38,809 bases of DNA from an uncultured Clostridia bacterium (GTDB lineage Bacteria > Bacillota > Clostridia > Christensenellales > UBA1242): assembly GCA_947627585.1 (NCBI GenBank), contig CANQWP010000001.1, positions 1 to 38,809 on the forward strand, in the 5' to 3' direction. Under the pieces are notes generated by a model that saw nothing but the letters and a program-made list of their open reading frames with translations, did not search any database and was not told the DNA's origin. Made by a program: the position numbers and the translations under genes. Below, piece by piece: positions 384 to 27,789 of the stretch (position 1 is the first letter of the stretch; each line of letters begins with the position of its first letter).

Positions 384-3300
384 TCAAATTTTCTCCCACA
401 ATAACATTGGCAAGTTTGATGTTGTGTCCCAAATTGTTTCGCTGAAATTGAATTTTGAGTCATATTTTTGTGACTGTCCGCAGTTTTGCATTCTGGAGGA
501 GATTCCGTTTGCGCACAAGTCGCCTTGCTCGGTCGAAAAGCAAGAATTCATTTCGCCAAACAACGTCCCAACAAGCACGCCATATTTCAAACTGGTGTGA
601 ATTTGAACGGTGCTATATGAAAATTCAATGCTCTTTCTCAGCGAAGGAAAACTTCCATAAAGTCCGCCAATTGCCCCGCCTTGAACTTCATTGGTTGTGA
701 TTGAGCCTGAGGCATAATTGTCATGCGAAGAGCTTTGCCCATTCCCAACAAGCCCGCCGATTGTCACACTGCTTGCTCTTTCAACAAGAATTTGTGAATT
801 TGAAAAACTCTCTTCGGTCTTTGATTTTTCTTTGTCTTCGCCAATCAAGCCTCCAATTGTGGCGCGCGAAACATCTTTTGCGTCAAGCGTCCCTTTGAAA
901 GCGCTTTTTGAAACTTCCCCGCCATTTTCTCCAACAAGGCCGCCGGCAACGACATCGCTTGAATTGGTGATGACAATTTTGACTTCGCTTTCACAAAGCA
1001 TCAAAACTCCGGCATTTTTCCCGGCGAAGCCACTGACAATTTCGGCTTTCTCAATTTCGAGTTCTCCAAGCGCTACACAATTTTCAATGCTCCCAAAATT
1101 TTCACAAACAAAAACTCCAAACGTTTTTGCCTTGGTGGGTTTTATGTTTCCCTCCACAGTCAAGTTTTTCACTGTCCCATGATTTGCGCGTAAAAAGGCA
1201 TCGCTCAAATTTGAAATTTTGTGATCTTTTCCATCAAACTTTCCGTGAAAATCCGCGGCCGTCCACTTTTTCTGCGAAAAATCCAAATCGTTTCCCAAAG
1301 AAAAGTTGGCATATTGCGCATTTTGCATGAGAAGAAGATCGTTTTGCGTCGTGATTTTGATTGTTGGTGGCAAAACAAAGAATGTGATGGCAAGAAGCAA
1401 AGCGTTCAGCACGCCCAGCACGAAAAGTGTCAAAAACGTGGCGATCTTGCCCCTTGAAAGCCTTTTTTTCTTGATGAGAAAATATATCAAATTTCCGGCA
1501 GCCGCAGCGGCGGCATATGCTACTGAAATAATGAGAAATGTTTGTGAAAAATAAGGATAGACTTCTTTTGGCATGAAAATTGACAAGGCAAAAAGCATCA
1601 AAGAAAAGCAAAGCGGAATGAATTCAAGAAAAATAATCAAAAATCTCTTCAAAAACTGTTTTTTTCTCAAACTTTCGAATTGTTGTTCTCTTTTTTTCTC
1701 AACGAAGCTTTGTTTTTCTTCCGTTCTTGAAAATCCTCCCGCCTTTTCTTCAACTTGAAGAACACTTATTGAGGAATCAAGTGACAACCCCAACAAAAGA
1801 AGTCTCTCTTGAATTTTGTCATAAAGGGTCTGAAAGTCTTCAAATGTTTGCACGCTGTCAATTTTTGCGAGATATTTTTCAAAAGGCTTGAGTTGGCTCT
1901 TGAAATAGTCCAGCCCGATTTTTGCGGCGTCTTGCTTTTCAATGTCAAGTAAAATTTTTTCGTTGCGGAGCAAAAAGTTCTTCAGTTTGCTTTTAAGTTT
2001 TTCTTTGTCAAGAAGGTCGGGTTGAAAGTTTGTTTTCGTGCCGGAAAAAAGATTGTTTTTGCTGACAATTGCGCCGTATAATTCGTCGTGTGCATCGTCT
2101 CCAATTTCCAAAAGCGTTTCCCATTCCGGAAAGTCGCTTGGCTTCACTTTTGAGGCAATCACCTCTTCATCGCTTCGACAATGACATTTGATTTGAATCA
2201 ATTTCCAATAAAGTTCAGCGTTTGCCTCCGCTTTTGAAATGGCAATGGAAACATATTTCTCCGCCATTTTGAAAAATTGCATTTGTTGCAAAGCGTCAGC
2301 AATTTTTTTTAAAAGCGAAACAAGAGCAGAATTGTCTTGAATGTAGGCAAGATAAAAATCAAGTTGTTTCTCCGCCTCCTCAAGATTGAAAAATGCGACC
2401 GGCAAAATCAGGTCAACAACAGCAGAAACAAATGCAATTCGGGCTTTTTCGTCCAAAAATTGCAGCATGTTTTCAATTTCTTCACGATTGCGATAAGAAA
2501 GTTTGTCTTTTGGCGTCTCAAAATGCCTCAACATCAAGGCAATGTTGCTTTGTGCGTGGCCGGAATCGATTTCCAGAATTTTTTGATAATATTTTTTGTC
2601 GTCATTTTTCTGCGCAAGCAAAAAATAGAATCTTTCAAAACGGTCCACCACGTCTCTGCCAAAACAACTTTCAACATTTTCAATCAACTGTTGGTCATTT
2701 GTTTCAACAGCTTTGTTTTCTGCGGCGGACACAAAGTTTTCGCGATTTGGCGTCTTGAAAGAAGCAAGAAAGGTCAAATATTGATTGTAAAACTCAACAT
2801 CGTCCAACTCTTGAATCAACATTTCCCATCTGTCAACAAAGTTTTCGCCAAAACTTTTGTTTGCATATCTCAAAATGTTTTCAATCTGATCTTTGTCAGA
2901 GAAGTTTGAAATTTTTGAGAAAAATTCTTCTTCAGAGCAAATCTTTTTCTCCGCCAAAAGCTTTGCAAACAAAAGATCGCTACTGTATGGCTCATCTTCA
3001 AGTTCTTTTTCAACAAGCTCTTTTGCGGTTTGAAAATCTTTGTTTTTCAGCGCCAAAAAAATCCACTTCTTTTTTGAGTCAGAACTGCTTGGAACGTTTT
3101 GAACTTCATAGTGTCCCAAGTCGACCGGAGAAATGCTTTCCAAATCGAGATATTCTTTTTTCTTTGGCCGAGCCTTTTCGACCCTGATTGTGTCAATTTT
3201 GGCAAGTTCAGTCTTTGCGTTTTCAATTTCGTTGACAATTCTCACTTCCAAATCTTTGGAAAACGAAATTGATGTTGTGTCCATGACATTTTTTGCTTCA

Positions 3301-4088
3301 AAGAATTCTTTTGGCAAACTTTCGGCGAGTTTTGATTTTTCCGTGCACAACACAAAGCTTGAAGCCGTTTTTTTTCGCAAAGTAATAAGGTGGAAATATC
3401 GGTCAAACAAGTTTTTAAAACGACCTAGCGGGCTTTCGTCCAAATAGCAACAAACAAAAACTTTTGCTGTCTCCAAAGCGCGAAAAGAGATCTCTTCGCT
3501 TTCTTTTTGAAGCAAATCGTCACAATTGAAAACGGAAAGTTCGTTTGCGTTCAACATTTTCAAGATTTCGTTTTGAAATTGTGTTTTCTTTTCTTCATCT
3601 TTGCAAAAAATGCTCAAAATGCAATCAAAAATCTTTTTTTGTGCGCCGGCCTCATATCCTTTTTTGATTTTTTCTGTCCTTTTTGAGATGTCAACAAGCA
3701 TTTTTGCGCGCTCTGGGGGCGCAATTGATATCGCTTTTTTCGCGTCCTCGTCTTCCAACAAAGAAACAATTTTTTCACCAAAAAAACATGGGCTTTTCAG
3801 CACTCCACGTTTGTTGGGATATATGACAATTTTGTTTTTTGCAAGGGCTCGTCCAAAAAAGGCTTCAAAGGACATTGGAAAAAGTGAGAGAGTTTTGTTG
3901 AATTCGTCAAGCGCTTTTTCAAATTGCAATTCACGCAGAAAATCATATGCACGGGCGATCAAAAACTCTTCGTCTTTTGATGCTTGCTCATCGACATAAA
4001 GAGTCCCGCAAAACAAGCATTTGACCATGTTTTGCCCAACAACTTCATAGTTTTTTCCGCCACAATTGTTGCACGCTCTTTCTCTCAT
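384..4088 (-). CDS. Zn-ribbon / TPR-like helical repeat / 3-TM / extracellular GLUG-repeat protein (1234 aa; last gene of the ESCRT-like operon)
   Basis: ATG at 4088, TGA at 384. aa 6-28 form a zinc ribbon (CNNCGG-x13-CLFCG). aa ~45-810 are mostly helical with TPR-like units. Three hydrophobic helices lie at aa ~814-839, 849-872 and 882-907 (nt 1368-1649). RKKQFLKR precedes TM1 and KKKRLSRGK lies between TM2 and TM3, which gives N-in/C-out topology by the positive-inside rule. aa ~945-1190 start with FHGKFDGKDHKISNL and then repeat GGLVG/GGLIG/GGLVGN/GGLYG, which are GLUG-type repeats. Confidence 0.85.
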   Translation of the reverse strand: MRERACNNCGGKNYEVVGQNMVKCLFCGTLYVDEQASKDEEFLIARAYDFLRELQFEKALDEFNKTLSLFPMSFEAFFGRALAKNKIVIYPNKRGVLKSPCFFGEKIVSLLEDEDAKKAISIAPPERAKMLVDISKRTEKIKKGYEAGAQKKIFDCILSIFCKDEEKKTQFQNEILKMLNANELSVFNCDDLLQKESEEISFRALETAKVFVCCYLDESPLGRFKNLFDRYFHLITLRKKTASSFVLCTEKSKLAESLPKEFFEAKNVMDTTSISFSKDLEVRIVNEIENAKTELAKIDTIRVEKARPKKKEYLDLESISPVDLGHYEVQNVPSSSDSKKKWIFLALKNKDFQTAKELVEKELEDEPYSSDLLFAKLLAEKKICSEEEFFSKISNFSDKDQIENILRYANKSFGENFVDRWEMLIQELDDVEFYNQYLTFLASFKTPNRENFVSAAENKAVETNDQQLIENVESCFGRDVVDRFERFYFLLAQKNDDKKYYQKILEIDSGHAQSNIALMLRHFETPKDKLSYRNREEIENMLQFLDEKARIAFVSAVVDLILPVAFFNLEEAEKQLDFYLAYIQDNSALVSLLKKIADALQQMQFFKMAEKYVSIAISKAEANAELYWKLIQIKCHCRSDEEVIASKVKPSDFPEWETLLEIGDDAHDELYGAIVSKNNLFSGTKTNFQPDLLDKEKLKSKLKNFLLRNEKILLDIEKQDAAKIGLDYFKSQLKPFEKYLAKIDSVQTFEDFQTLYDKIQERLLLLGLSLDSSISVLQVEEKAGGFSRTEEKQSFVEKKREQQFESLRKKQFLKRFLIIFLEFIPLCFSLMLFALSIFMPKEVYPYFSQTFLIISVAYAAAAAAGNLIYFLIKKKRLSRGKIATFLTLFVLGVLNALLLAITFFVLPPTIKITTQNDLLLMQNAQYANFSLGNDLDFSQKKWTAADFHGKFDGKDHKISNLSDAFLRANHGTVKNLTVEGNIKPTKAKTFGVFVCENFGSIENCVALGELEIEKAEIVSGFAGKNAGVLMLCESEVKIVITNSSDVVAGGLVGENGGEVSKSAFKGTLDAKDVSRATIGGLIGEDKEKSKTEESFSNSQILVERASSVTIGGLVGNGQSSSHDNYASGSITTNEVQGGAIGGLYGSFPSLRKSIEFSYSTVQIHTSLKYGVLVGTLFGEMNSCFSTEQGDLCANGISSRMQNCGQSQKYDSKFNFSETIWDTTSNLPMLLWEKI

Positions 4089-4097
4089 GTTTGCCTT

Positions 4098-5240
4098 TTA
4101 ACTTTGTTTTTTCGTTCTCTTTTTGATGTAGCCGTTGATCTCTTCATTATATTTTTCAAATTCGGCAATTTCTTTTTCGGTCACGCTTGGGGGCATTTCG
4201 TCCAGAACGCGATCAAAGTCGGCATTTGAAACAAGCACAACTTTGTCGGTGGCGATGGCCTTCAAAAGCGGCTCGTCTTTTGCGCGGTCACAAAGTTCTT
4301 CCAAATCGGCACCGCTATATTTTTCGGTCTGAGTCACAATTTTGTCAACGTCAAAATTTTTGGTCACCGGAACACCTTTCATGTTTTTTTCAATCATAAA
4401 CTTTCTTGCCGGCGCGTCAGGAAGTGGAAGATAAATCTTCTGCGAAAAACGCCCTGAGCGCATTGCGGCGCTGTCGATGTCCCACGGTCTGTTTGTTGCG
4501 CCCAAAAGCAAAAGATTCGGGTTTCTGCCCGCAAAGCCGTCGATTTGTTGCAAAAATTCGTTCACACGCTTGTCGTTGTGGGTGTCAAGTCCACGTTTTC
4601 CAATCAAGCTGTCCATTTCGTCAATGAAAATGATGGCGCGCTCTTGTTTGTTGGCCTCTTCAAAAAGCGAGTTGATATTTTTTTCGCTGTCGCCCACCCA
4701 TTTGCTGACAATGTCGCTGCCTTTGACGGCATAGAACTTTGCGCCGACCTCATTTGCAATGGCTTTTGCAATCATTGTTTTTCCGGTGCCCGGCGGGCCA
4801 TAAAGCAGCACTCCTCCGCCCGTCTTTTTTCCATACATTTTGTATTTTTCCGGATATTTTGTCGGGTTGATCATTTTGATAGTGATGGCTTTTTTGACAT
4901 CTTCAAGTCCGGCGACATCGTCGAAGCTTATGTTTGGAATTTGCGCGGCCTGCCATTTTTTGAGGTCGTCATCTTCTTCATCTTGTTTTTTGTCGCTTTT
5001 TCCGGTCTTTTCTGGCGCTTTTTGAAGGTTCTCCGAAATCTTCACAAGTCCCCGCGCCCTTTCCATGCGCACGGCTTTCAGTTTCCCTTGGCTTTGCTTT
5101 GCCATTTGCATCATCGTCTCGCTGGCCAGCAAAAAATTACGCTTTGCAAGGCTGACATTTCCTTTTGCACGCGCCTCTTTGCCTTTTTTCATATAGAGGT
5201 CAAACTGTTCGGACAAAATGTTGATGTTCGTTTCTTCCAT
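4098..5240 (-). CDS. Vps4-like (meiotic-clade) AAA+ ATPase with N-terminal MIT-like domain (380 aa)
   Basis: ATG at 5240 follows a GGTGA RBS. Walker A is GPPGTGKT (aa 148-155, nt 4776-4799) and Walker B is IIFIDEMD (aa 203-210). The pore loop is SKWVGDSEK (Vps4 has SKWLGESEK). The SRH reads ATNRPWDIDSAAMRSGRF. The C-terminal PSVTEKEIAEFEKYNEEING resembles the Vps4/spastin C-terminal helix. aa ~8-75 are three helices with a MIT-like pattern, followed by a charged linker. Confidence 0.9.
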   Translation of the reverse strand: MEETNINILSEQFDLYMKKGKEARAKGNVSLAKRNFLLASETMMQMAKQSQGKLKAVRMERARGLVKISENLQKAPEKTGKSDKKQDEEDDDLKKWQAAQIPNISFDDVAGLEDVKKAITIKMINPTKYPEKYKMYGKKTGGGVLLYGPPGTGKTMIAKAIANEVGAKFYAVKGSDIVSKWVGDSEKNINSLFEEANKQERAIIFIDEMDSLIGKRGLDTHNDKRVNEFLQQIDGFAGRNPNLLLLGATNRPWDIDSAAMRSGRFSQKIYLPLPDAPARKFMIEKNMKGVPVTKNFDVDKIVTQTEKYSGADLEELCDRAKDEPLLKAIATDKVVLVSNADFDRVLDEMPPSVTEKEIAEFEKYNEEINGYIKKRTKKQS

Positions 5241-5254
5241 ATTTCACCAAATTT

Positions 5255-5848
5255 TCAGGCTTCACTGTCAATTTTCTTGCGCACTTCTTCCATTTCTTTG
5301 TCAATGTTTTCAGAAGAAAGTTCGTCTTGGCTGGCTTGCTCCATGATAAATTTTTCAAGTTCTGCATCGGTCATGCCTTTTCCGCTCTTGTCTTTGCCGG
5401 CATTGTAGAACGTCTCTTGGCTCATTTCCATGAAGTTGTCCATTTGGTCGGTTTGAGTTTCAACAGCAAGCATTGCCTCTTCAAACTGCGCTTGGATTTT
5501 TGCAAATTCTTTTGCATCGGCAAGTTTTGTCATCTCTTTTGAAATGTCGCTCATTCCGCGTAAGAATTCACTTGTCATCATGGTGACGTCTTTCATTTGA
5601 GCGGTGATTTCAAAGTTGAGAAGCATTTCTTGCGCGCGCTTTTGTTGTTGAACTGTCATCTTATAGCCCGAAAGTGCAAGATTGAACTGTGCGTCCAAGC
5701 CTTTGAGCTTCGCGCGCTTTGCGGCGTCAATGAACACCTGCTTTTGCTCTTCAAGTCGATTGATTTGCTTGTTCATTGTGTTGATTGTGCGCTTGATCAA
5801 CATCTTTTTTTCGATTTCTTTTTGTTGTTTGCTTTTGAAAAGTCCCAT
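5255..5848 (-). CDS. Snf7/ESCRT-III-like protein (197 aa, CHMP2/Vps2-like layout)
   Basis: ATG at 5848 follows a GGAGGAA RBS. The N-terminus is MGLFKSKQQK (hydrophobic then basic). A long basic helical hairpin (...IDAAKRAKLKGLDAQFNLALSGYKMTVQQQKR...) aligns by eye with CHMP2A ...IKKMAKQGQMDAVRIMAKDLVRTRRYVRK.... The central ...LADAKEFAKIQAQFEEAMLAVETQTDQMDNFM is comparable to CHMP2A LKLPQIQKIMMEFERQSEIMDMKEEMMNDAI. The C-terminus is acidic and ends in the amphipathic helix DKEMEEVRKKIDSEA. Confidence 0.7.
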   Translation of the reverse strand: MGLFKSKQQKEIEKKMLIKRTINTMNKQINRLEEQKQVFIDAAKRAKLKGLDAQFNLALSGYKMTVQQQKRAQEMLLNFEITAQMKDVTMMTSEFLRGMSDISKEMTKLADAKEFAKIQAQFEEAMLAVETQTDQMDNFMEMSQETFYNAGKDKSGKGMTDAELEKFIMEQASQDELSSENIDKEMEEVRKKIDSEA

Positions 5849-5851
5849 TTT

Positions 5852-6466
5852 TTATTCCTCCATTTTCATCTTTTTCTTTTTATTTGGTTGCGAAGGGCTC
5901 GCATTTTCCAACAACTCCTGTTCATCTTTCATGGCGCTTTCTTTTTCAAACATTGTCAAAATTTCGTCCTCTGTTTTTCCAACGCCATAAATTGGCTGAC
6001 TGACTTCATATGCCGATTGCACCTCGGCAAAAAGTTCATCGGCGGAAGTGAGCACATCTTCGCTTGCAATTCTTGTTTCAAGCGCCTTGTTCAGAAATTT
6101 TGCCAATCTTTTTTGGTCGGCCAAAAGTTCCGACAGTGGCACTTTTGTTTGTGTCTTGAAGAATGAGTTGCTGTCATATGCATCTTTCAGCTTGTTCATG
6201 AGGCGAATGTTGTAAAGAAGATACATTCCCCTTTCCATGCAAGTTTGTTTCTCTTCATTCAGGTGTGTGATTTTTTTTGCATAGAAAAGTTGCAAGTCGC
6301 GGCTCTTTTCTTTCTTCCCCTTTTCCATAAGCGCGTCAATTTCTTTGATTTTTTGCAAGACTTCCGCCTCGACAGTCCGCTCTTGGCGTTCAAGTTCGCA
6401 AATTGAATTGACCAAATCTTCACGATTGAGATTTTTGAATTTGTTTCGTCTGAATGGCCACCACAT
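5852..6466 (-). CDS. second ESCRT-III/Snf7-like coiled-coil protein (204 aa, CHMP6/Snf7-like layout)
   Basis: I place the start at ATG 6466-6464, which shares one base with the upstream TGA (TGATG) and follows a GAGGGGGA RBS. The track's first codon is an in-frame TTG at 6469. The N-terminus is MWWPFRRNKFKN (aromatic then basic, like the Snf7 MWSSLFGW or CHMP6 MGNLFGRKK membrane-anchoring ends). ...LMEKGKKEKSRDLQLFYAKKITHLNEEKQTCMERGMYLLYNIRLMNKLKDA resembles CHMP6 ...LLRDGRKERAKLLLKKKRYQEQLLDRTENQISSLEAMVQSIEF. An acidic C-terminal half is followed by a KKKKMKMEE tail. Confidence 0.6.
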   Translation of the reverse strand: MWWPFRRNKFKNLNREDLVNSICELERQERTVEAEVLQKIKEIDALMEKGKKEKSRDLQLFYAKKITHLNEEKQTCMERGMYLLYNIRLMNKLKDAYDSNSFFKTQTKVPLSELLADQKRLAKFLNKALETRIASEDVLTSADELFAEVQSAYEVSQPIYGVGKTEDEILTMFEKESAMKDEQELLENASPSQPNKKKKMKMEE

Positions 6467-6825
6467 CAATAGTTGTCCCCCTCATTTATTTTGTTGATCC
6501 TCTCCAAAAGATCGGCATATATGTTTTTTTGTTCAGCATTTGCAAATTCCAAGGCATTTTGGCATTCTGGCAAAAGCAAAACGCTCTTGAATTTGACCGG
6601 CTCAGCAAAAAGTTGATCCTCGTTGGAAATTTGAAATTTTGAAAGCATCATTCCCCACCAAGCATCGGCACACTTTTCGTCGAGTGAAATTGCACGGGTG
6701 AAATTTTGCTCTGCTTGTTCAAAAAACTCATCGCTCAAATTCAAATATCCAAGGTCAAGCTCAATTTCAACATTTCTTTTTGTTTCTTCTTCCAAGCCTG
6801 CGCTTGCAACGTGATTTCTTTTCAT
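6466..6825 (-). CDS. small soluble TPR-like protein (119 aa)
   Basis: ATG at 6825 shares one base with the upstream TAA (TAATG). FFEQAEQNFTRAISLDEKCADAWWGMMLSKF is a TPR-like helix pair of the same flavour as the repeats in the 1234-aa protein. No TM segment. Confidence 0.6.
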   Translation of the reverse strand: MKRNHVASAGLEEETKRNVEIELDLGYLNLSDEFFEQAEQNFTRAISLDEKCADAWWGMMLSKFQISNEDQLFAEPVKFKSVLLLPECQNALEFANAEQKNIYADLLERINKINEGDNY

Positions 6826-7232
6826 TATGATTGTTCGTCCTTTTTGCGCTGAACAATGTAGGCCTCAATTTCTTCCAAAACGCGAAAGCAAGTTTCTTGA
6901 GTGTTGTCTTGTGCGGTCATGATTTTCAAATCGTCCAACCTATTTGCAAGTTTGTTGTCCACCAAAAGCACTTTCGCGTTTGTTGTCGGATTGAAGAAGC
7001 GTATGTTGTCCTTCACTTCCACAAGCCTTCGGCAAAGTTCATCGTTGCCGTTTGCATAAACAATGATGCTTTCGACATTTGCCACCATGTTTTGAATTTG
7101 TTTTTTGTTTTTCATCACTCCGTGCGAGCCCGTCTCTTCCTCACTTTTTGGCCTTTTGACATATTCGCGGACCACATAGAATGTGGCAAGTCCAACAATG
7201 GCAATCAAAATTGTAACATACAAATAAATCAT
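6825..7232 (-). CDS. single-pass membrane protein (135 aa), function unknown
   Basis: ATG at 7232 follows an AAAGGAGA RBS. The N-terminal TM is MIYLYVTILIAIVGLATFYVV, followed by REYVKRPK and then a ~100-aa soluble helical part. I recognise no family. Confidence 0.7.
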   Translation of the reverse strand: MIYLYVTILIAIVGLATFYVVREYVKRPKSEEETGSHGVMKNKKQIQNMVANVESIIVYANGNDELCRRLVEVKDNIRFFNPTTNAKVLLVDNKLANRLDDLKIMTAQDNTQETCFRVLEEIEAYIVQRKKDEQS

Positions 7233-7250
7233 TTTTTCTCCTTTAAAGTT

Positions 7251-8081
7251 TTACAACTTTTGCCCGCATTTTTGGCAAAACTTTGCATCAGTCGAATTTC
7301 TCTCTCCGCAATTTGCACATCTTTTTTCTCTGGACAGCGCCTGGCCACAATTTGAGCAGAATTTTGAATTTCCTTTCACCTCGGCGCCGCAGTTTGGACA
7401 AAAACCGTTTTTCTCGGAATTTTTTGAAAGAACGCTCAGCCGTTTATAGTCCTCGCTGTCAATGATGATGTTTGCAATGTTAAACGAAAACACGGCAATT
7501 CCATATTCACTTTGAAGTTTGTGCGAAAGTTCGCTCAAAACTTTTTCCGAAATGGCTTTTTTGTGCATTGAAAGCTGATTGAATGGCACATGATTTTTTG
7601 AAATATAATCCAAAATCACCAATTCCATCACCGAAACAACGGTCGAGCGCAGCCTTTCTTGCAACAAATTTGCTGTCAAATCTTTGTCCGACCCGATGAG
7701 ATAGAGATAGCACTTTCTTGGGTCGCCAATTTGCACGTCAAAATCGCCGCTGAAGCCAACGTGATAATTTTCGTTTGAGTCTTCGTCAAAAAGCACAAGT
7801 TTTTGCGACGTTCCCCACAAAAGTTTGAGTTTTGCAGTCTTGCTCATGAAAAGCACTTCGATTTGGCTTTCAAGATCCTCTTTCATATCCAAAAAATCAG
7901 CAAGGGCATATTTGCCGGAAGAAAGCGTTTGAAGCATCTGCCCGTCTTTGATCAGAATGGCGTTGTGAGTTTCCGGAACGATCACAGAAAGTTTTTGCGA
8001 AAGAGTCTCAACTGGAACTCTGCAAAAAAGTTTGTCGTTGTTTCCAGAGAACTTGATTGTGTTTGCCTGATTTTTCTCCAT
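7251..8081 (-). CDS. SPFH-fold, YdjI-like ('virion core protein-like', COG4260-type) protein with C-terminal double zinc ribbon (276 aa)
   Basis: ATG at 8081, TAA at 7251. The core ...LLWGTSQKLVLFDEDSNENYHVGFSGDFDVQIGDPRKCYLYLIG...LRSTVVSVMELVILDYISKNHVPFNQLSMHKKAISEKVLSELSHKLQSEYGIAVFSFNIANIII matches the pattern I remember for B. subtilis YdjI-type SPFH proteins (WGT..pi.l.D...v.lrafG.y...I.DP..f......yGi.l.sf.i.ni). The C-terminus (nt 7254-7406) is FCPNCGAEVKGNSKFCSNCG...RCANCGERNSTDAKFCQKCG, i.e. two CxxC-x9-11-CxxC ribbons. Confidence 0.75.
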   Translation of the reverse strand: MEKNQANTIKFSGNNDKLFCRVPVETLSQKLSVIVPETHNAILIKDGQMLQTLSSGKYALADFLDMKEDLESQIEVLFMSKTAKLKLLWGTSQKLVLFDEDSNENYHVGFSGDFDVQIGDPRKCYLYLIGSDKDLTANLLQERLRSTVVSVMELVILDYISKNHVPFNQLSMHKKAISEKVLSELSHKLQSEYGIAVFSFNIANIIIDSEDYKRLSVLSKNSEKNGFCPNCGAEVKGNSKFCSNCGQALSREKRCANCGERNSTDAKFCQKCGQKL

Positions 8082-8111
8082 TTTTCACCCAAAAGTTGAC
8101 TTTTCTTATTC

Positions 8112-8140
8112 AGTATAACAAAAAATTTTTTCAAAGTCAA
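8112..8140 (-). promoter_or_regulatory. promoter of the seven-gene ESCRT-like operon
   Basis: The minus strand reads TTGACT(8140-8135), a 17-nt spacer, then TATACT(8117-8112) with TGT immediately upstream (extended -10). It lies ~30 nt upstream of the ATG at 8081, and a terminator lies just upstream of it. Confidence 0.6.
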
Positions 8141-8175: not shown

Positions 8176-8210
8176 AAAAAACCGGGATTTGTGAGTTTTC
8201 CCGGCTTTTT
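8176..8210 (-). terminator. rho-independent terminator after the 164-aa lipoprotein gene (bidirectional shape)
   Basis: Stem CCGGGA(8182-8187)/TCCCGG(8199-8204) with an 11-nt loop, an A-run on one side and a T-run on the other. On the minus strand it reads GCCGGGAAAACTCACAAATCCCGGTTTTTT. Confidence 0.75.
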
Positions 8211-9391: not shown

Positions 9392-9790
9392 ATGACAGGA
9401 ATTGAAAAAAAATATGGCGAAGGCGCAGAACTTTTGTGGAAGGACAGAAAAAGATATTTCGGACTTCCGCTTTCTTTCACAAAATACAGCCTTGTGAAAA
9501 AGCCTGGCGCTTGGGTGAAAGTGTTTTTGAATGTTGGGCTTTTGTCCTCACGAATTGACGAAATCAATGCATATCGCATTTGCGACATTCGCATGAAACA
9601 GTCCCTTCTTGGCAAAATGTTCAATTATGGCGACATTGTCCTTTTGAGCAGCGACGAAAGTCAGCCAACTTTGCTTTTGAAAAATATCAAAAATCCATAT
9701 CAAGTGCGCGAATTGTTTTCGACCGTTGCAGAAGAGCAACGCAAACTCAACAACATTCGTGTTGCCGAATTTCACAGTCACGACGACTGA
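9392..9790 (+). CDS. bacterial PH domain (bPH_2/YdbT-like) protein, 132 aa
   Basis: AAAGGAGA RBS. ...INAYRICDIRMKQSLLGKMFNYGDIVLLSSDESQPTLLLKNIKNPYQVRELF is the characteristic bPH_2 core (I.d....q....r.fg.G.i.i.......l....i..p..v...i). No flanking TM helices. Confidence 0.75.
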   Translation: MTGIEKKYGEGAELLWKDRKRYFGLPLSFTKYSLVKKPGAWVKVFLNVGLLSSRIDEINAYRICDIRMKQSLLGKMFNYGDIVLLSSDESQPTLLLKNIKNPYQVRELFSTVAEEQRKLNNIRVAEFHSHDD

Positions 9791-10606: not shown

Positions 10607-10682
10607 GGGGGTTTAGCTCAGTTGGTAGAGCACTTGCCTTGCAAGCAAGGGGTCAAGAGTTCGAATCTCTTAATCTCCACCA
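10607..10682 (+). tRNA. tRNA-Ala (anticodon UGC), CCA encoded
   Basis: Manual cloverleaf: acceptor GGGGGTT/AATCTCC with G3:U70; D arm GCTC-AGTTGGTA-GAGC; anticodon arm CTTGC-CTTGCAA-GCAAG (positions 34-36 are TGC); T arm AAGAG-TTCGAAT-CTCTT; 3' ACCA. Confidence 0.95.
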
Positions 10683-10691
10683 GAGAAAAAA

Positions 10692-10714
10692 CTGCGCTGC
10701 TAGCGCGGTTTTTT
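10692..10714 (+). terminator. terminator after tRNA-Ala
   Basis: Stem CTGCGCT/AGCGCGG (one G-U pair) with loop GCT, followed by TTTTTT. Confidence 0.65.
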
Positions 10715-10798
10715 GTTGCACAAAAAATCCTTCGCTTTTCGCTTGTTTTTTCTCTTTGCGCCGGATTTGCCCGTTTGAAAATCGCAGGCATATAAAAT

Positions 10799-10830
10799 TA
10801 AAAAAACGAGGGATTATTCCTCGTTTTTCT
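10799..10830 (-). terminator. terminator after mscL (bidirectional shape)
   Basis: Stem ACGAGG(10806-10811)/CCTCGT(10819-10824), A7 upstream and T-run downstream. On the minus strand the stem is followed by TTTTTTT. Confidence 0.7.
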
Positions 10831-10835
10831 TTTTC

Positions 10836-11438
10836 TTATTTCTTTGTTGTTTTTGCAGGTTTTTCGGCCTTTGTTTCGTTTTGCTTTTTCAGCTCTTCCA
10901 AAATGCCTGTCAAAAGTTCTTCTTGAGTTGGTTTTGGAGGCTCTGGCGCTGGTTTGTTCTTTTCGCGAAGTTCAAGTGTTGCTTTTTTCACTGTTTCGCG
11001 GTCATGCATGTCAACGCCATCGGCCTTCAATTGTGCACGTTCTTCTTTTGTTGGACGGCCTTCTTTGACTTTGTCAGTCATGCCGTGTGCTGCCATGAGG
11101 GCTTTCAAAATCAAGAACAACACCATTGCAATGATAAGGAAGTTCAAAATCGCCGTGATGAATGCGCCCCAGTCGATATATATGCTGGCATCAAGATTGA
11201 CAATGCCTGTGGTCGGGTCAACGACTTTTCTGAGGAATGTGTAAGCGCCCTCCACGCCCCTTCCACCGGTGATTGCTGCAATTGCCCAATTCACAAGCGG
11301 CATGATGATTTTGTTTGTGAATGCCGTCACAATTGCGCTGAAAGCAGAGCCGATGATTACGCCAATTGCCAAGTCAACAATGTTTCCACGCGAAATGAAT
11401 GCTTTGAAATCGCTGAAAAACTTTTTGATTCTTTTCAT
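10836..11438 (-). CDS. mscL: large-conductance mechanosensitive channel MscL with long charged C-terminal extension (200 aa)
   Basis: ATG at 11438 follows an AAGGAGA RBS. The N-terminus FKAFISRGNIVDLAIGVIIGSAFSAIVTAFTNKIIMPLV is the canonical MscL TM1 region, and TM2 is WGAFITAILNFLIIAMVLFLILK. About 70 extra K/E/P-rich residues follow. Confidence 0.9.
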   Translation of the reverse strand: MKRIKKFFSDFKAFISRGNIVDLAIGVIIGSAFSAIVTAFTNKIIMPLVNWAIAAITGGRGVEGAYTFLRKVVDPTTGIVNLDASIYIDWGAFITAILNFLIIAMVLFLILKALMAAHGMTDKVKEGRPTKEERAQLKADGVDMHDRETVKKATLELREKNKPAPEPPKPTQEELLTGILEELKKQNETKAEKPAKTTKK

Positions 11439-11469
11439 TTTTTTCTCCTTTTGAATTTTGTTTACACAA

Positions 11470-11499
11470 ATTTTAGCAAACTTTCAACAAAAAAATCAA
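11470..11499 (-). promoter_or_regulatory. mscL promoter
   Basis: The minus strand reads TTGATT(11499-11494), an 18-nt spacer, then TGC-TAAAAT(11475-11470). The -35 overlaps the upstream terminator stem. Confidence 0.5.
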
Positions 11500-11520
11500 G
11501 CAAATCGCGCTTGATTTTTG
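11488..11520 (-). terminator. terminator after the lipoprotein/MGMT gene pair
   Basis: Stem ATCAAGC(11495-11501)/GCTTGAT(11509-11515). On the minus strand it is followed by TTTTTTT. Confidence 0.7.
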
Positions 11521-11590
11521 ATTTTCTTTATATTTTCATTTGTTTTGATTTTTGAAAGAATTTCATCTTAAAAATTTTTCGCTTTTCCCT

Positions 11591-11905
11591 TCACAAAGAT
11601 GGCCGCCAAAGATGTTTTTCCATGTCAACATTTCCGTTCTCGTCAAAGGTCACGCCTTCGGCAAGCAGCCTCTTTTTTTGTTCGTCCGCACCGCCAAAAG
11701 CAAAACTTCCGCTGAGAGCCCCAAATCGATTGACAACTCTGTGACACGGAATGTGTCTTGGATCAGGGTTTGCGTGCAGTGCATATCCCACAACTTGCGA
11801 AAATCTTGGCGCGCCCAAAATTGTTGCAATTTGGCCATATGTTGCCACTTTTCCGCGCGGAATATCTTTCACAACATTGTACACTCTTTCAAAAAAGGCA
11901 CTCAT
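11591..11905 (-). CDS. MGMT-family protein (methylated-DNA-protein-cysteine methyltransferase C-terminal/DNA-binding domain only, 104 aa)
   Basis: ATG at 11905 overlaps the upstream TGA (ATGA). The sequence YGQIATILGAPRFSQVVGYALHANPDPRHIPCHRVVN contains the PCHRV active-site motif. Confidence 0.85.
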   Translation of the reverse strand: MSAFFERVYNVVKDIPRGKVATYGQIATILGAPRFSQVVGYALHANPDPRHIPCHRVVNRFGALSGSFAFGGADEQKKRLLAEGVTFDENGNVDMEKHLWRPSL

Positions 11906-13884
11906 CCCAACTCCTGCGAACCCGCACTGACGAGTTTCATTTCTTCTGGCGTATCAAAATAGAAGTCAGAAAGAGGGAATTTCACAACAAGATAATCTCC
12001 GTCTTCTTCGCTTAACTCTTCGGCATCAAGTTTTCTGTTATCGTTGGCAATTGTGTTTTGAAGAATGAACCATCTGCCCTTGCCAAGAAGTTTGACATCT
12101 CCCTCTGCTTTGAGTTTGAAATACAGAACTTGACCAAAAGACATTGTTCTTTGCACAGCCACACCTCTTGAAAGATCTGTCCAAGAGGAAATCTGATCAG
12201 CACCAACTTGAGCGCTGTCAATTGCAAACTGCACCCCTGAAACACGTTCGTCAACAAGATCAAAATCAAAACTTACGAAAACGCTCTTTTCTTGAAGTTG
12301 GAAGTCATTGAAAATGAATTCCATGTCACCTTCTGGCACAAATTCGAAGTGGAACTTATCATATTTTTGCGTAGTCTCGTTGAAAATTGCTTTGAAGACA
12401 TTGCCATTTTCAAAACTAATTTCCAAATCTTGTCCGGCTTTGTCTTCGTTTCCTGATAAGATGTCTGCTACGTTCAGCACTATTTCGCCGTTGATATAAA
12501 GGTTATAGTCATAAAGCTTGTATGGTGTGATGTATTTTTCGCCGACTGATGGATATTCCCAGTCCAAAGAAGTTTTCGTTCCCTCAAAAACAATCATGTT
12601 GCCTTCGTCGTCATAGCCTGCCACAACATCTTGTTCTCCATTTTCGTCAACTGTTGAAAAATCAGGAACAATAAGTTTGATTGGGTGAGTTTCTGCCGTG
12701 CTTGCTTTTAAGGAAATTGTTTTCTTTTCGCCATAATCAATCCCTTTGAAACAAAGATCATATGAATCTTCTCCGCCGGTCGATTCTGGAGTAAGACCGG
12801 TTGGCACAAGATATGTGATTTCGTCCTCAGCATTTTCAGCATCCGGATCTTGTTCCAATTCCAAATCGTTGACAAAGCATTTGAGGTTTGAATAGTCAAC
12901 ATCTTGCAAAAGTTTTTTAAACTTGATTTTTGCAGAAGATTCAAAATTGAATGTGCTTGGAGCTTCTTTCAAAGCGGCCACATTTGCTTCCCCTGGAGCT
13001 GACGGCTCTGACGTCTCTGGGTCTTGCAAAATTTCAAAGGTGGTTTCAAACGTTTTGTTGTTTTTTTGAATGTAAAGTGGAAAATCCATCAGTTTCAAAG
13101 AACCAAAATCGGTCAACAACGTCACTTCAAGATTGTTTTCAAGATTGCCAAGTGAAAAAGTGTATGTCCCTCCATCATATGTCGGATAATCTAACGCTTT
13201 TGTGGTCGGCTCCTCCGTTCCATTTTGATATTGAATCTTAAATGGACTTTCTGCATTGATGACATAAGGATTTCCACCCTTGAATTGCATTTGGAAAGCG
13301 CCTGCGCCTTCGTCTTGCCCAACCAAGTCAATGTCGAAAGATTTGTCGTCCCCATTCAAAAAGTCATAAAAATTGACAAAATCTTCTTCCCCTGGAATTT
13401 TTATGCTTGCGTTATTCAGTCTTGCTGCAACACTTTCATCTTCAAGATTATCTACTTTGAAAACAATGTGATTTTTGTAACTTTCAGCACCCGAAACAGA
13501 GATTGTGACGTTCTCTTTCAATCCTTTGAAAAGTATGTAACCATATTTTAGTCCGCCGTCTTGTTTCAAAGGTTCATAATTGTTGTTGAATGTATAAATT
13601 TCGTTTCTTTGTTCGTTGTTGGCCTTGACAACAAGGTTTCTCATGTCAACGCCATGTTGTTTTGCATAAAACCAAACTTGAATTTCTGAATTTTCGCGAA
13701 CTTGAAATTTTCCGCTTGAATTTGCTTTGACCTCTTGCTTGTCAGCCAGGACAGAAGCCGTCACAAACTCCGGCTCCTCAAAAACAAAAGAAATAAAATA
13801 ATTTGCGCTGTCGCAAGAAGCCAACAACACTCCCGAAAAAAGCATGAAAAGCGAACAAATCGTCAAGGTGAGAAATTTTTTCAT
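11902..13884 (-). CDS. large lipoprotein (660 aa), function unknown
   Basis: ATG at 13884 follows a GGAG RBS. The signal peptide is MKKFLTLTICSLFMLFSGVLLASC (lipobox LLASC). The rest is acidic, beta-rich and extracellular-looking, with no motif I recognise. Confidence 0.8.
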   Translation of the reverse strand: MKKFLTLTICSLFMLFSGVLLASCDSANYFISFVFEEPEFVTASVLADKQEVKANSSGKFQVRENSEIQVWFYAKQHGVDMRNLVVKANNEQRNEIYTFNNNYEPLKQDGGLKYGYILFKGLKENVTISVSGAESYKNHIVFKVDNLEDESVAARLNNASIKIPGEEDFVNFYDFLNGDDKSFDIDLVGQDEGAGAFQMQFKGGNPYVINAESPFKIQYQNGTEEPTTKALDYPTYDGGTYTFSLGNLENNLEVTLLTDFGSLKLMDFPLYIQKNNKTFETTFEILQDPETSEPSAPGEANVAALKEAPSTFNFESSAKIKFKKLLQDVDYSNLKCFVNDLELEQDPDAENAEDEITYLVPTGLTPESTGGEDSYDLCFKGIDYGEKKTISLKASTAETHPIKLIVPDFSTVDENGEQDVVAGYDDEGNMIVFEGTKTSLDWEYPSVGEKYITPYKLYDYNLYINGEIVLNVADILSGNEDKAGQDLEISFENGNVFKAIFNETTQKYDKFHFEFVPEGDMEFIFNDFQLQEKSVFVSFDFDLVDERVSGVQFAIDSAQVGADQISSWTDLSRGVAVQRTMSFGQVLYFKLKAEGDVKLLGKGRWFILQNTIANDNRKLDAEELSEEDGDYLVVKFPLSDFYFDTPEEMKLVSAGSQELG

Positions 13885-13911
13885 AAAATCTCCAATTTTT
13901 TCTCTGCTTAT

Positions 13912-13920
13912 ATTTTATCA
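13912..13920 (-). promoter_or_regulatory. extended -10 element upstream of the 660-aa lipoprotein gene
   Basis: The minus strand reads TGA-TAAAAT, 27 nt before the ATG at 13884. The -35 is only weak (TTGTAA with a 16-nt spacer). Confidence 0.4.
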
Positions 13921-27788: not shown

Positions 27789-27789
27789 G

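Follow-up and report, generated by a model that had tools for sequence, protein, structure and literature searches.

Could a bacterium carry an ESCRT-III-type polymer together with its own Vps4-type ATPase? Recent reviews confine the ESCRT-III and Vps4 pairing to archaea and eukaryotes. The question is raised by seven genes in a stretch of 38,809 nucleotides from an uncultured Clostridia bacterium (the window). From the letters of this stretch a first-pass annotation had proposed an operon for membrane remodelling, with two ESCRT-III-like proteins, a Vps4-like ATPase and an SPFH protein. We analysed the seven products, their homologues and their genomic context. The results suggest that the operon probably encodes a bacterial ESCRT-III/Vps4-type, ATP-driven membrane-remodelling module.

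Operon structure and conservation

The seven minus-strand ORFs, here g1 to g7, are tightly packed from 8081 down to 384 and lie downstream of one good promoter-like site. From g1 to g7 the junctions are a gap of 18 nt, one-base overlaps at 6825 and 6466, and gaps of 3, 14 and 9 nt. The overlaps and gap sizes in the first-pass annotation agree with the ORF coordinates. The promoter predicted from the sequence at 8112..8140 (minus strand), TTGACT-17 nt-TG-extended TATACT, is 30 nt 5' of g1. It is the joint-best site on its strand (10/12) and the sole one with an extended -10 box. However, the scan gave 14 promoter-like sites against 11 +/- 3.5 in shuffled sequences; as this total is not above the shuffles, the assignment rests on position and not on statistics. 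The 5' boundary of the unit is a terminator-like hairpin of the upstream lipoprotein gene (~8205-8175, minus strand). It follows the stop codon of that gene and consists of CCGGGA, an 11-nt loop, TCCCGG and a T7 run. This hairpin was read by eye, and is absent from the terminator scan because of its long loop; the first-pass annotation had a terminator here, at 8176-8210. The next promoter-like site that it listed, at 294-322, is likewise present (TTGCAT-17-TATAAT, ~322-294).

The synteny of the gene set in related genomes, which the first-pass annotation had named as a check, is strong. About 50 species-level genomes, from Christensenellales-type gut bacteria, carry all seven genes in identical order, so the grouping is more than chance, and about 25 further genomes have the core. 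Across the syntenic loci conservation is highest for g5, g4 and g6 (71-96% identity) and lowest for g7 (33-54%). Among 46 loci, bPH_2 genes lie upstream of the operon in 31 and MscL genes in 23. No relatives on viral contigs were found. The operon is a stable chromosomal locus.

The pair formed by the Snf7-like gene and the ATPase gene reaches far beyond Firmicutes-like genomes. In eight distant metagenomic loci (GC 40-66%; identity to g5 24-36%) the Snf7-like gene always lies directly 5' of a homologous ATPase gene, and these ATPases carry the same N-terminal domain as g6. SPFH genes occur with the pair also in loci L090, L091 and L093. In distant relatives the SPFH gene is followed by a gene of 110-150 aa in the place of g2.

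ESCRT-III-like proteins

The product of g5 (5255..5848; 197 aa) starts with the motif MGLFKSK and is a member of a large family of bacterial proteins. The top match of the family profile is human CHMP2A (7zcg_B, E 1.6e-6), covering residues 8-143 with 136 collinear residues. Weaker matches are CHMP1B, CHMP3, CdvB, Vps24 and Asgard ESCRT-IIIB; PspA and Vipp1 are not among the matches in this search of structures. Pfam Snf7 is matched by 27 of the 94 family members (best E 1.4e-9) and by 9 of 23 in another set. It is by far the commonest Pfam family among the members, and the sole recurrent one. Direct searches did not detect it in either coiled-coil protein of the window, g4 or g5, and family profiles were needed. 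By these profiles g5 sorts into the Snf7/CHMP branch within the superfamily of ESCRT-III, its nearest class being that of Vps2/CHMP2 and Did2/CHMP1, and not into the PspA branch. Family members match Pfam Snf7 and never PspA.

The C-terminus of g5 contains an amphipathic MIM1-like helix, NIDKEMEEVRKKI (5267..5314, minus strand; residues ~179-194), that follows an acidic linker and has the conserved pattern D..I[DE]KELEELKKKI. Of the 94 family members, 26 carry the MIM1-like motif within their final 35 residues, versus 2.3 in shuffled tails, an approximately 11-fold excess, and where present it always ends 4-6 residues before the C-terminus.

In the helical protein g4 (5852..6466; 204 aa from its ATG; identical to NCBI protein P0271) the alignment of 33 orthologues shows conservation of the N-terminal motif MW(W)PF(K/R), with basic residues after it. 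g4 aligns with the g5 family by hhalign at E 1.4e-4 (probability 52%, 164 collinear columns), whereas controls give E 0.04-0.4; the scores of reversed-sequence and other-helical controls are 100 to 1000 times poorer. The AF2 model has a hairpin (H15-52/H56-98) at pLDDT 85-90 and then three short helices. In Foldseek 13 of the 22 top matches belong to the superfamily of ESCRT-III (CdvB2/PspA/Vipp1), the best E being 0.12, below significance. These profile alignments and the model suggest that g4 is probably a divergent second ESCRT-III-fold subunit. Thus of the two ESCRT-III-like proteins claimed earlier, g5 is assigned to the Snf7/CHMP type, while the evidence for g4 is weaker.

AAA ATPase

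The g6 protein (4098..5240; 380 aa) contains one AAA domain (Pfam AAA). Its motifs are Walker A GPPGTGKT, Walker B IIFIDEMD, the pore loop SKWVGDSEK and the arginine-finger region RSGRF; within the family no variation is seen in the KW pore loop, the two Walker motifs or the arginine fingers. The KW loop is of the Vps4 type, whereas RSGRF is of the classic-clade type, Vps4 having RRF. The N-terminal domain (5031..5225, minus strand; residues 6-70) is modelled as three MIT-like helices, 6-25, 29-49 and 53-70, at pLDDT 81-91, and a disordered acidic linker comes next (71-105). In PDB the profile of the domain matches best the MIT domain of chitin synthase 1 (2mpk, E 5.5e-5), and further MIT matches are CdvC (2w2u, E 0.045) and VPS4B (E 1.7-4). 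Here, too, a family profile was needed, since Pfam MIT was not detected in g6. A predicted C-terminal helix of the Vps4_C type (4104..4178, minus strand; residues 355-379) scores 19.3 bits, below the cut-off of 21.3, and PF09336 is precomputed for many orthologues.

In a limited neighbour-joining tree of 19 taxa (archaeal CdvC/Vps4, proteasomal and other AAA clades not among them) the g6 family is sister to Vps4 and katanin with bootstrap 95-98%, apart from Cdc48 D1, Cdc48 D2 and FtsH. The first-pass annotation had named a position outside the meiotic clade as counter-evidence, and this tree does not point to one. The CdvC model aligns with g6 from end to end, at 201 bits and far under its equivalog cut-off of 650 bits. 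Makarova et al. accepted neighbouring ESCRT-III genes as a criterion for naming an ATPase Vps4. The description of g6 as a Vps4-like ATPase with MIT and AAA+ domains is supported by the MIT-like bundle, the pore loop and the tree grouping. It does not fit the arginine-finger region or the raw scores, as p97/Cdc48 D2 is the closest to the AAA core both in PDB and in Foldseek, and the highest NCBIfam score belongs to the CDC48 model.

Accessory proteins

The identification of g1 (7251..8081; 276 aa) as an SPFH/YdjI-like protein with two zinc ribbons is confirmed: Pfam gives Band_7_1 (56.3 bits, cut-off 24), Zn_Ribbon_1 (E 7e-16) and DZR (E 3.4e-11), and the Cys motifs of the two C-terminal ribbons are CPNC/CSNC and CANC/CQKC. 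No TM segment was predicted in g1, consistent with a cytosolic protein. The architecture is that of B. subtilis YdjI/SamI (YdjI is listed as Band-7+ZnR). The small protein g2 (6825..7232; 135 aa) has, as claimed, a single TM helix (residues 2-20), followed by a helical tail.

The giant protein g7 (384..4088; 1234 aa) consists of a zinc ribbon (6-27), a TPR-like module, a degenerate TIR-like domain (~150-270) that the first-pass annotation had missed, a long helical region, three TM segments (~814-908) and a GLUG domain (~910-1234). The TM segments and GLUG domain had been noticed earlier, and Glug scores 25.5 bits against a cut-off of 20.5. The TM segments and their charge flanks predict that the N-terminus is inside and the C-terminus outside, with GLUG extracellular. 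g7 is homologous to a ZnR-TPR-TIR protein of Coproplasma (E 3e-12). The TIR Glu column contains Leu in g7, and Glu is lost throughout the clade that includes the window. In sister lineages the homologues score 35.3 bits for TIR_2 (cut-off 28), and the Glu of WVKNEW is conserved in 32 sequences. By these residues the domain looks active in the sister lineages and degenerate in the window.

The "TPR-like protein" g3 (6466..6825; 119 aa) does have weak TPR matches, but a more exact description is possible. Its alignment with the N-terminal part of g7 and of the TIR proteins (hhalign probability 98.8%, E 6e-17) identifies it as a free-standing paralogue of the g7 module that comes after the zinc ribbon, a relationship overlooked earlier.

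Possible mechanism and function

From the homologies, domain architectures, conserved motifs, synteny and co-occurrence we infer the following mode of action. g5, and probably g4, would assemble into polymers on the cytoplasmic side of the membrane, their N-terminal aromatic and basic motifs aiding membrane binding. g1 and g2 may form the platform on which the polymer is localised or nucleated, in parallel to SamI/YdjI with SamGH for PspA in Bacillus subtilis, where SamI/YdjI recruits PspA to the membrane. A g6 hexamer would dock by its MIT-like domain on the MIM1-like helix of g5, thread subunits through the KW pore loop and so extract them, ATP hydrolysis driving polymer turnover and membrane remodelling. 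g7 and the free module g3 may be fast-evolving, lineage-specific adaptors that link the core to the cell envelope, the TIR-like domain of g7 being dead.

One alternative is that there is no ESCRT system here: g6 would be a Cdc48-like unfoldase in membrane protein quality control, and g4 and g5 coiled-coil adaptors or substrates that have no relation to ESCRT-III and resemble it through their helical composition. Spurious profile matches arise easily with coiled-coil proteins, the window proteins lack direct Pfam matches, and p97 D2 heads the similarity lists of g6. However, the CHMP2A match is long and collinear, Snf7 is the one family that recurs, and the controls score far worse. g6 groups with neither D1 nor D2 and has an MIT-like domain in place of the Cdc48 N-domain, and the Snf7-like gene and the ATPase gene are strictly adjacent across very distant genomes. 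We consider this alternative very improbable.

The other two alternatives concern the use of the machine. As a membrane-associated conflict or immune system, its SPFH/ESCRT-III-like/AAA core would act as sensor or scaffold where phages or toxins have damaged a membrane, and then recruit or regulate effectors, such as a TIR NADase (Coproplasma-type) and elsewhere a NERD nuclease, a trypsin-like protease or FtsK/RuvB-like DNA motors; fusion to a Snf7-like domain would let an effector co-polymerise with the scaffold. The ZnR-TPR-TIR homologues of g7 in sister lineages agree with this, as do Snf7-like domains fused to RuvB-like+NERD or to FtsK motors, whose genes adjoin trypsin/Sel1 and WG_beta_rep genes and a second SPFH/Snf7-like/AAA cassette. 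Conflict systems typically have TIR domains with intact Glu, as in the sister lineages, and partners of the NERD, trypsin and FtsK types, as in the distant loci, and the accessory genes evolve fast. On the other hand, PADLOC shows nothing beyond generic AAA similarity (to IetA and TRIP13), viral relatives were not found, the chromosomal position is stable across many species, the core is conserved unlike patchy, fast-turnover defence islands, and it stays so throughout the window's clade, where the TIR Glu is lost. An immune role thus seems unlikely. Scission in the last step of division, in sporulation engulfment or in extracellular-vesicle budding, with Snf7-FtsK and Snf7-RuvB fusions of related systems clearing DNA from the closing neck, we regard as somewhat more doubtful still. 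ESCRT-III and Vps4 sever membrane necks during archaeal division and vesicle budding, one review raises abscission as a possible role of bacterial ESCRT-III homologues, and the core is conserved at housekeeping-like levels. However, division or sporulation genes are not linked to the operon in the window and the loci read, the clade of the window has no DNA-motor fusions, and the association with SPFH points to the stress paradigm of PspA.

The reading of the locus as a candidate membrane-remodelling system is thus supported, and the checks of superfamily, ATPase clade and synteny did not refute it. The most likely role, much less certain than the mechanism, is a response to membrane damage or stress, by repair or shedding of damaged membrane. 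Archaeal Meth_adaptin ESCRT loci also include an SPFH/coiled-coil/zinc-ribbon protein. Our literature search found no prior description of this operon. Contrary to the distribution given in the reviews, an operon of gut Clostridia appears to pair Snf7/CHMP-type proteins with a Vps4-like ATPase and an SPFH scaffold.

Operon structure and genomic context

The operon consists of seven minus-strand genes. Its source, a Clostridia MAG, is close to "Candidatus Caccovivens", and the window comprises the whole of a 38,809-bp NCBI contig. In the ORF listing, the genes in transcriptional order are g1, encoding an SPFH/zinc-ribbon protein (7251-8081, minus), g2, a small membrane protein (6825-7232, minus), g3, a TPR-like protein (6466-6825, minus), g4, a probable second protein of the ESCRT-III fold (5852-6466, minus), g5, a Snf7/CHMP-type protein (5255-5848, minus), g6, an AAA ATPase (4098-5240, minus), and g7, a giant protein of 1234 aa (384-4088, minus). 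These coordinates agree with the spacing given in the first-pass annotation: 18 nt after g1, one-base overlaps at the next two junctions, and then 3, 14 and 9 nt.

The promoter-like site TTGACT-17-TG-TATACT at 8140-8112 (minus) is joint-best of its strand and the sole one with an extended -10. It is preceded on its 5' side by a hairpin followed by a T-run (~8205-8175, minus), which closes the upstream lipoprotein gene. A second promoter-like site was found past the stop codon of g7. Promoter-like sites are no more numerous in this region than in shuffled sequences, so signal statistics do not carry the single-transcript reading, which is based on synteny and on how the genes are spaced.

To map the distribution of the operon, one genome of each GTDB species was scanned for a pattern from a narrow g5 alignment; the scan reached only Christensenellales-type genomes. 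Relatives of g5 were found in 143 genomes. The best 80 are without exception gut MAGs of the Christensenellales type, with the labels Caccovivens, Coproplasma, Christensenella or Catabacter. The first-pass annotation had proposed synteny in related genomes as a check of the gene set, and synteny was found: among the best 80 of the 143 genomes, about 50 have the seven genes in identical order. The identity to the window proteins in these syntenic genomes is 74-96% for g5, 72-91% for g4, 71-89% for g6, 45-78% for g1, 39-83% for g2, 42-67% for g3 and 33-54% for g7. Farther genomes keep the core (the SPFH/zinc-ribbon gene, the small TM protein, g4, g5 and the ATPase) wherever the contig suffices, and the ATPase is present in the g5 cluster of every Christensenellales-type locus with enough sequence. 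This genomic linkage is the strongest evidence of the analysis.

Two neighbours just upstream of the operon are conserved as well: bPH_2 (9392-9790, plus), a bacterial PH-domain protein kept in 31 of 46 loci, and MscL (10836-11438, minus), a mechanosensitive channel kept in 23 of 46. Because these upstream neighbours are conserved, the locus is considered a stable chromosomal one. A functional link to membrane tension may exist. A mobile island was considered and rejected, as the conserved flanks argue against it; no relative was found among the IMG/VR viral contigs.

Elsewhere in the window, two adjacent minus-strand genes encode giant, surface-protein-like products. One of them (1712 aa, 16470-21608) has nine MBG_2 repeats and three YDG repeats; its neighbour (2085 aa, 21627-27884) contains Big_2 repeats and a hyaluronate-lyase-like N-beta domain.

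The Snf7/CHMP-type protein g5

Taken alone, the window g5 protein has no match in Pfam or PDB and gave nothing useful in NCBIfam, and a family profile was required. When 1.84 billion representative proteins were searched exhaustively with HMMER (E <= 1e-3), relatives were found in 328 clusters; the profile was built from 94 diverse family members. Its best match in PDB is human CHMP2A (E 1.6e-6, residues 8-143, that is 136 residues). Weaker matches are CHMP1B, CHMP3, Sulfolobus CdvB, Vps24 and the Heimdallarchaeal (Asgard) ESCRT-IIIB; PspA and Vipp1 are absent from the PDB matches of this profile. When the members were scanned singly, Pfam Snf7 was matched by 27 of the 94 (best E 1.4e-9). It was also matched by nine of the 23 closest relatives of g5. 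No further family is recurrent in either set. The Snf7/ESCRT-III assignment of g5 made at first pass is upheld by the profile match to CHMP2A and the Snf7 matches of the members, which place g5 in the Snf7/CHMP/CdvB branch: as judged by profiles, g5 is a Snf7/CHMP-type ESCRT-III protein.

The N-terminal motif MxxFKSK is conserved across the 94 family members. Together with the N-terminal motif of g4 (see below) it is a candidate membrane-binding element. The C-terminal part consists of an acidic linker with about 10 excess acidic residues, followed by an amphipathic helix with the consensus D..I[DE]KELEELKKKI. This helix has the spacing of MIM1, the helix through which proteins of the Vps2/Did2 class bind the MIT domain of Vps4, with hydrophobic residues at positions 4, 8 and 11 and a basic residue at position 12; Glu occurs where the MIM1 consensus has Arg. 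A MIM1-like pattern is found in the final 35 residues of 26 of the 94 members, compared with 2.3 in shuffled tails, and without exception it ends 4-6 residues before the C-terminus. The g5 tail is therefore described as a putative, MIM1-like MIT-interacting motif.

An assignment of g4 and g5 to the PspA type was also considered and rejected, as PspA occurs neither among the PDB matches of the g5 profile nor among the Pfam matches of its members. PspA_IM30 (PF04012) matches neither of the two window proteins and is absent from the commonest Pfam families of the g5 relatives.

A candidate second subunit, g4

The g4 family is narrow and strongly conserved: it comprises 899 proteins, the best 120 of which are 50-100% identical. 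Its N-terminal motif is MW(W)PF(K/R) with an invariant Phe. Nothing useful was obtained with the single g4 sequence in Pfam, NCBIfam and PDB, and no relative was found among PDB sequences with the family profile. Profile-profile alignment (hhalign) of the g4 and g5 families gave 164 collinear columns with E 1.4e-4 and a probability of 52%; the controls, reversed alignments and other helical proteins of the operon, gave E 0.04-0.4 over at most 57 columns. The AF2 model (mean pLDDT 63.8) contains a helical hairpin, 15-52/56-98 (38 and 43 residues, pLDDT 85-90), followed by three shorter helices of low confidence. Foldseek found no significant match for this model (best E 0.12, TM-score <=0.42). 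Structures from the superfamily of ESCRT-III, namely CdvB2, CdvB, PspA, Vipp1, Asgard ESCRT-IIIB and CHMP2A/3, make up 13 of the 22 top matches, none of them significant.

The ESCRT-III layout first ascribed to g4 is compatible with the predicted hairpin and the three low-confidence helices; the Foldseek E-values and the hhalign probability fall short of confirming it. We consider it probable that g4 has the ESCRT-III fold and is a divergent second subunit.

The Vps4-like ATPase g6

According to Pfam, g6 (380 aa) is a classic AAA ATPase with a single AAA domain. In its AF2 model (mean pLDDT 70.9), three N-terminal helices (6-25, 29-49 and 53-70; pLDDT 81-91) are followed by a disordered acidic linker, the AAA core with the lid, and a long C-terminal helix, 355-379. 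The profile of the N-terminal domain, which drew on close and distant relatives, matched 14 PDB entries. The best is the MIT domain of Saprolegnia chitin synthase 1 (2mpk, E 5.5e-5), and the others include the MIT domain of Sulfolobus CdvC (2w2u, E 0.045) and three VPS4B MIT entries (E 1.7-4). We assign this domain with moderate confidence to MIT-like three-helix bundles. The MIT call of the first-pass annotation agrees with the bundle and with the profile match, but Pfam MIT was not detected in the N-terminus of the window protein.

The features of the AAA part are mixed. The NCBIfam CdvC equivalog aligns across the full length of g6, but its score of 201.4 bits is below the cut-off of 650, and on the AAA part alone it is slightly outscored by the NCBIfam CDC48 model. 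Vps4_C gave 19.3 bits in the window protein against a cut-off of 21.3, and PF09336 is precomputed for many orthologues. The closest solved structures in phmmer and Foldseek searches are the D2 domains of p97/Cdc48 (193 bits, 35-39% identity to the AAA core, TM-score 0.81 on isolated D2); the Foldseek list for full-length g6 was filled by p97 chains, and MIT-only entries could not appear in it. Vps4-like features are the pore loop SKWVGDSE and the PW that comes behind the ATN motif, whereas the arginine-finger region RSGRF is p97-like, p97 having RPGRL/RFGRF and VPS4B and yeast Vps4 having RRRF. With regard to the Vps4/spastin/katanin hallmarks noted for g6 at first pass, the motifs give a mixed picture: the pore loop fits the Vps4 type and the arginine-finger region does not.

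A neighbour-joining tree was constructed from 221 core columns of 19 taxa. The references were VPS4B, yeast Vps4, KATNA1, KATNAL1, D1 and D2 of p97 and of yeast Cdc48, and E. coli FtsH, with sequences recovered from PDB search alignments; the tree is distance-based only and has no archaeal Vps4/CdvC or other AAA clades. The bacterial family, Vps4 and katanin are split from Cdc48 D1, Cdc48 D2 and FtsH with 95-98% bootstrap. The bacterial ATPases are monophyletic (81-87%), and they group with D2 in at most 3.5% of bootstraps. The identity of g6 is 44% to yeast Vps4 and 39% to p97 D2; over the AAA core it amounts to 41-44% for VPS4B and yeast Vps4. The placement in the meiotic clade suggested at first pass agrees with the grouping with Vps4 and katanin; in this small tree the bacterial family is sister to the eukaryotic Vps4+katanin group and not nested in it. 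The tree is supportive, short of decisive. We describe g6 as Vps4-like in architecture and provisionally also in phylogeny.

Several relatives of g6 differ in domain composition or in catalytic motifs. Among P0391-P0396 and the ATPase genes of the loci L057, L059, L065, L067, L077, L079 and L083, some are tandems of ~700 aa with an MIT-like and two AAA domains, and others have an extra C-terminal domain of ~100 aa behind a low-complexity linker. The g6-family ATPase of the metagenomic locus L090 (13988-15154) has altered Walker motifs, GLPGNGKT for Walker A and FFDDAD instead of DE for Walker B, and may be a hydrolysis-impaired variant. Its arginine-finger region, SRFKRIIY, is closer to the Vps4 type.

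Accessory proteins

The domain assignments made at first pass for g1, g2 and g7 were all recovered. In g1 (276 aa), Band_7_1 scores 56.3 bits against the Pfam cut-off of 24, and both C-terminal zinc ribbons are present; no hydrophobic segment was found, which indicates a cytosolic SPFH protein. The 135-aa product of g2 has one N-terminal TM helix and is a single-pass protein. In g7 we found a CxxC...CxxC ribbon, three TM segments at ~814-908, and GLUG (PF07581) with 25.5 bits against a cut-off of 20.5. Positively charged flanks occur on the N-terminal side of the TM segments and in loop 2. Because of these flanks around the three segments, the N-terminal 800 residues are predicted to be inside the cell and the C-terminal 325 residues, with GLUG, outside.

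Over its first ~300 residues, g7 shows homology (E 3e-12) with short proteins of the layout ZnR-TPR-TIR-TPR, whose genes, often in tandem, are situated between g5 and the ATPase gene in Coproplasma-type genomes, for example at positions 10611-12350 and 12423-14174 of the locus L062. In the short proteins the TIR domain exceeds the Pfam cut-off, and its conserved Glu is retained (WVKNEW in 32 sequences). The corresponding region of g7 (residues ~150-270; 3279-3641, minus) is only TIR-like: in the giant Caccovivens-type g7 proteins, including that of the window, the Glu column contains L, I, Y, V or F, and the domain is degenerate in the clade of the window. The TPR-like module located behind the zinc ribbon, both in g7 and in the TIR proteins, has a paralogue in the 119-aa protein g3 (hhalign probability 98.8%); the motif (A/D)xWWGMxLSK is common to them.

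Distant loci

Outside Christensenellales-type genomes, the analysis covered eight metagenomic loci with GC content of 40-66% that carry g5 relatives of 24-36% identity. In all eight, the Snf7-like gene is directly followed by an ATPase gene, whose product is 35-39% identical to g6 and has the same N-terminal domain. An SPFH gene is present in three of the eight (L090, L091 and L093).

Other genes near the pair vary. Next to it, two high-GC loci (L084:1-1272, L089:6918-8207) encode Ser/Thr kinases that have TM/TPR or RDD domains. A conserved coiled-coil protein of ~310-350 aa is encoded between the SPFH and Snf7-like genes at L090:12350-13384, L091:4027-5055, L092:13474-14520 and L093:3840-4769. 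These coiled-coil proteins, ~345 aa in L090-L093, were considered as ESCRT-III-like candidates and rejected, since they are similar neither to g4 nor to g5 nor to any Pfam family.

Snf7-like domains of the g5 family also occur in fusions. Some are N-terminal to RuvB-like AAA+WHD proteins, part of which also contain a NERD nuclease or TnsA-like domain, and others are N-terminal to FtsK/SpoIIIE DNA-translocase motors that are devoid of the usual TM domain. Fusions with DNA motors are P0165, P0173, P0175, P0177, P0180, P0182, P0223 and P0251, and the products of L090:8001-10403, L091:245-2089 and L092:8001-9668. The fusion genes have trypsin/Sel1 genes and WG_beta_rep genes as neighbours, along with a second SPFH/X/Snf7-like/AAA cassette that is complete.

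Comparison with known systems

The closest architecture is that of archaeal ESCRT, in particular the Meth_adaptin type of Methanobacteriales (PMC10936438). There, as in the CdvB/CdvC systems, one or more Snf7-type genes adjoin the gene of an ATPase composed of MIT, AAA and a C-terminal helix, and the Meth_adaptin type has an SPFH/coiled-coil/zinc-ribbon protein of its own. The archaeal 'Main' clade resembles some distant bacterial loci in having Ser/Thr kinases nearby (PMC10936438). Makarova et al. 2024 gave as criterion ii for Vps4 that it is encoded beside ESCRT-III genes (PMC10936438); in the window g6 is the next gene downstream of the Snf7-like one, as are its counterparts in 8/8 distant loci. 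On the other hand, the host is bacterial, the ATPase contains RSGRF, and the operon encodes the accessory ZnR-TPR-TIR-like-3TM-GLUG protein, whereas the winged-helix/ESCRT-II-like, CdvA and adaptin-appendage proteins of archaea were not detected with it. The tail of g5 is a MIM1-like helix, unlike the proline-rich MIM2 of Sulfolobus CdvB.

Eukaryotic ESCRT-III provides the best solved-structure matches of the g5 family, CHMP2A, CHMP1B and CHMP3, and its Vps2/Did2 class has the MIM1-type spacing seen in the C-terminal helix of g5. The pore loop SKW(V/M/L)GE is common to VPS4 and g6. However, the beta-domain, the Vta1 module and ESCRT-0, -I and -II of eukaryotes have no counterpart in the operon, and the Vps4+katanin clade excludes the g6 family in the small neighbour-joining tree.

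The accessory part resembles the pspA-ydjGHI (samGHI) operon of B. subtilis. There, the cytosolic SPFH protein YdjI/SamI, which has a zinc ribbon, recruits together with small membrane proteins an ESCRT-III-superfamily polymer (PspA) to the membrane; g1 has the same combination of Band_7_1 and zinc ribbon. The polymer differs, being of the Snf7/CHMP type here and not of PspA_IM30. The present operon also contains two polymer genes and a dedicated MIT-like AAA ATPase, which PspA systems do not have (2025 review). The first-pass annotation had read the operon as a hybrid of a Snf7-type polymer with a dedicated Vps4-like ATPase and a PspA-type SPFH/zinc-ribbon accessory set, and the analysis supports this reading.

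Cdc48/p97/VAT D2 is the top PDB and Foldseek match of the g6 core, and the RxGRF region and the C-terminal helix are common to both. However, g6 has a single AAA domain and an MIT-like N-terminal domain instead of a double-psi barrel, is set apart from D1 and D2 in the tree, and is linked to ESCRT-III-like genes.

Liu et al. 2021 treat the Snf7 type as belonging to archaea and eukaryotes and the PspA type as belonging to bacteria, and a Vps4-like ATPase "appears absent in bacteria" according to a 2025 review. For bacteria, Ravi et al. 2024 reported genes of MIT+Vps4-AAA-ATPases (Opitutus, M. smegmatis) as well as proteins of the Snf7 clade (Archangium, Salinibacter) (PMC11237479). In the Opitutus type, a TPR and multi-TM protein behind the ATPase recalls g7 after g6, but in these ATPase cases snf7 is reported to be displaced by a TPR-TM gene. 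The Snf7 cases (SIG+TM+Snf7) have a signal peptide and a TM segment and lie beside PspA. None of the contexts in the main text and Table S3 of that paper joins two cytosolic Snf7-like proteins, an ATPase and SPFH. Literature searches, including full-text ones, turned up no account of bacteria that encode Snf7-type proteins together with a Vps4-like ATPase and SPFH in one operon.

Proposed mechanism and physiological role

The best-supported reading is polymer remodelling of the ESCRT-III/Vps4 type, in which the steps from polymerisation onward are extrapolated from the families involved. In this mechanism g5, together with g4, would form an ESCRT-III-type polymer on the inner face of the membrane. 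Its position would be set by the SPFH/zinc-ribbon platform of g1 and g2, in the way that SamI/YdjI positions PspA in B. subtilis. A hexamer of g6 would then dock by its MIT-like domain on the MIM1-like tail, thread the subunits via the KW pore loop and remodel the polymer, with g7 and g3 acting as variable adaptors to the envelope.

As to the physiological role, membrane repair or a stress response is favoured because of the SPFH link, with membrane scission as an alternative. The main rival is an immune role, kept because the partners resemble genes of conflict systems: TIR proteins, NERD, trypsin/Sel1 and the DNA-motor fusions all have this flavour. However, a PADLOC scan found nothing specific, giving only generic AAA similarity (IetA 133 bits, TRIP13) and nothing for g1, g2, g4, g5 and g7. 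The locus has a stable place on the chromosome, its core shows high conservation, and in the clade of the window the TIR active site has been lost while the core has been kept.

Implications

Judged from sequence, the operon is likely to encode a bacterial ESCRT-III/Vps4 machine that has an ATPase family and an accessory set of its own. The operon is compact and conserved, and has the core ESCRT logic of ESCRT-III-type subunits, a MIM-like tail and a MIT-like AAA ATPase, joined to an SPFH recruiter familiar from bacterial PspA systems. The host clade, Christensenellales, is prominent in human and animal gut microbiota.

A wider proposition is that bacteria own a widespread Snf7/CHMP-type ESCRT-III lineage paired with a Vps4-like MIT-AAA ATPase. 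It draws on the 328 clusters at 50% identity, the loci of 40-66% GC and the position of the ATPase in a small tree as sister to Vps4/katanin and not in Cdc48, and we regard it as conceivable, on the doubtful side. If it is true, the FtsK, RuvB-like and NERD fusions would couple an ESCRT-III polymer to the handling of DNA at membranes in a way not seen before. If, moreover, the bacterial lineage is ancient and not a recent transfer from archaea, the ESCRT-III/Vps4 partnership, that is, ATP-driven ESCRT-III remodelling, would be no archaeal invention.

The proteins are small and soluble and therefore suited to in-vitro reconstitution. The operon makes testable ATP-driven ESCRT-III remodelling in bacteria, the age of the ESCRT-III/Vps4 partnership, and the ancestry of the link between SPFH proteins and ESCRT-III.
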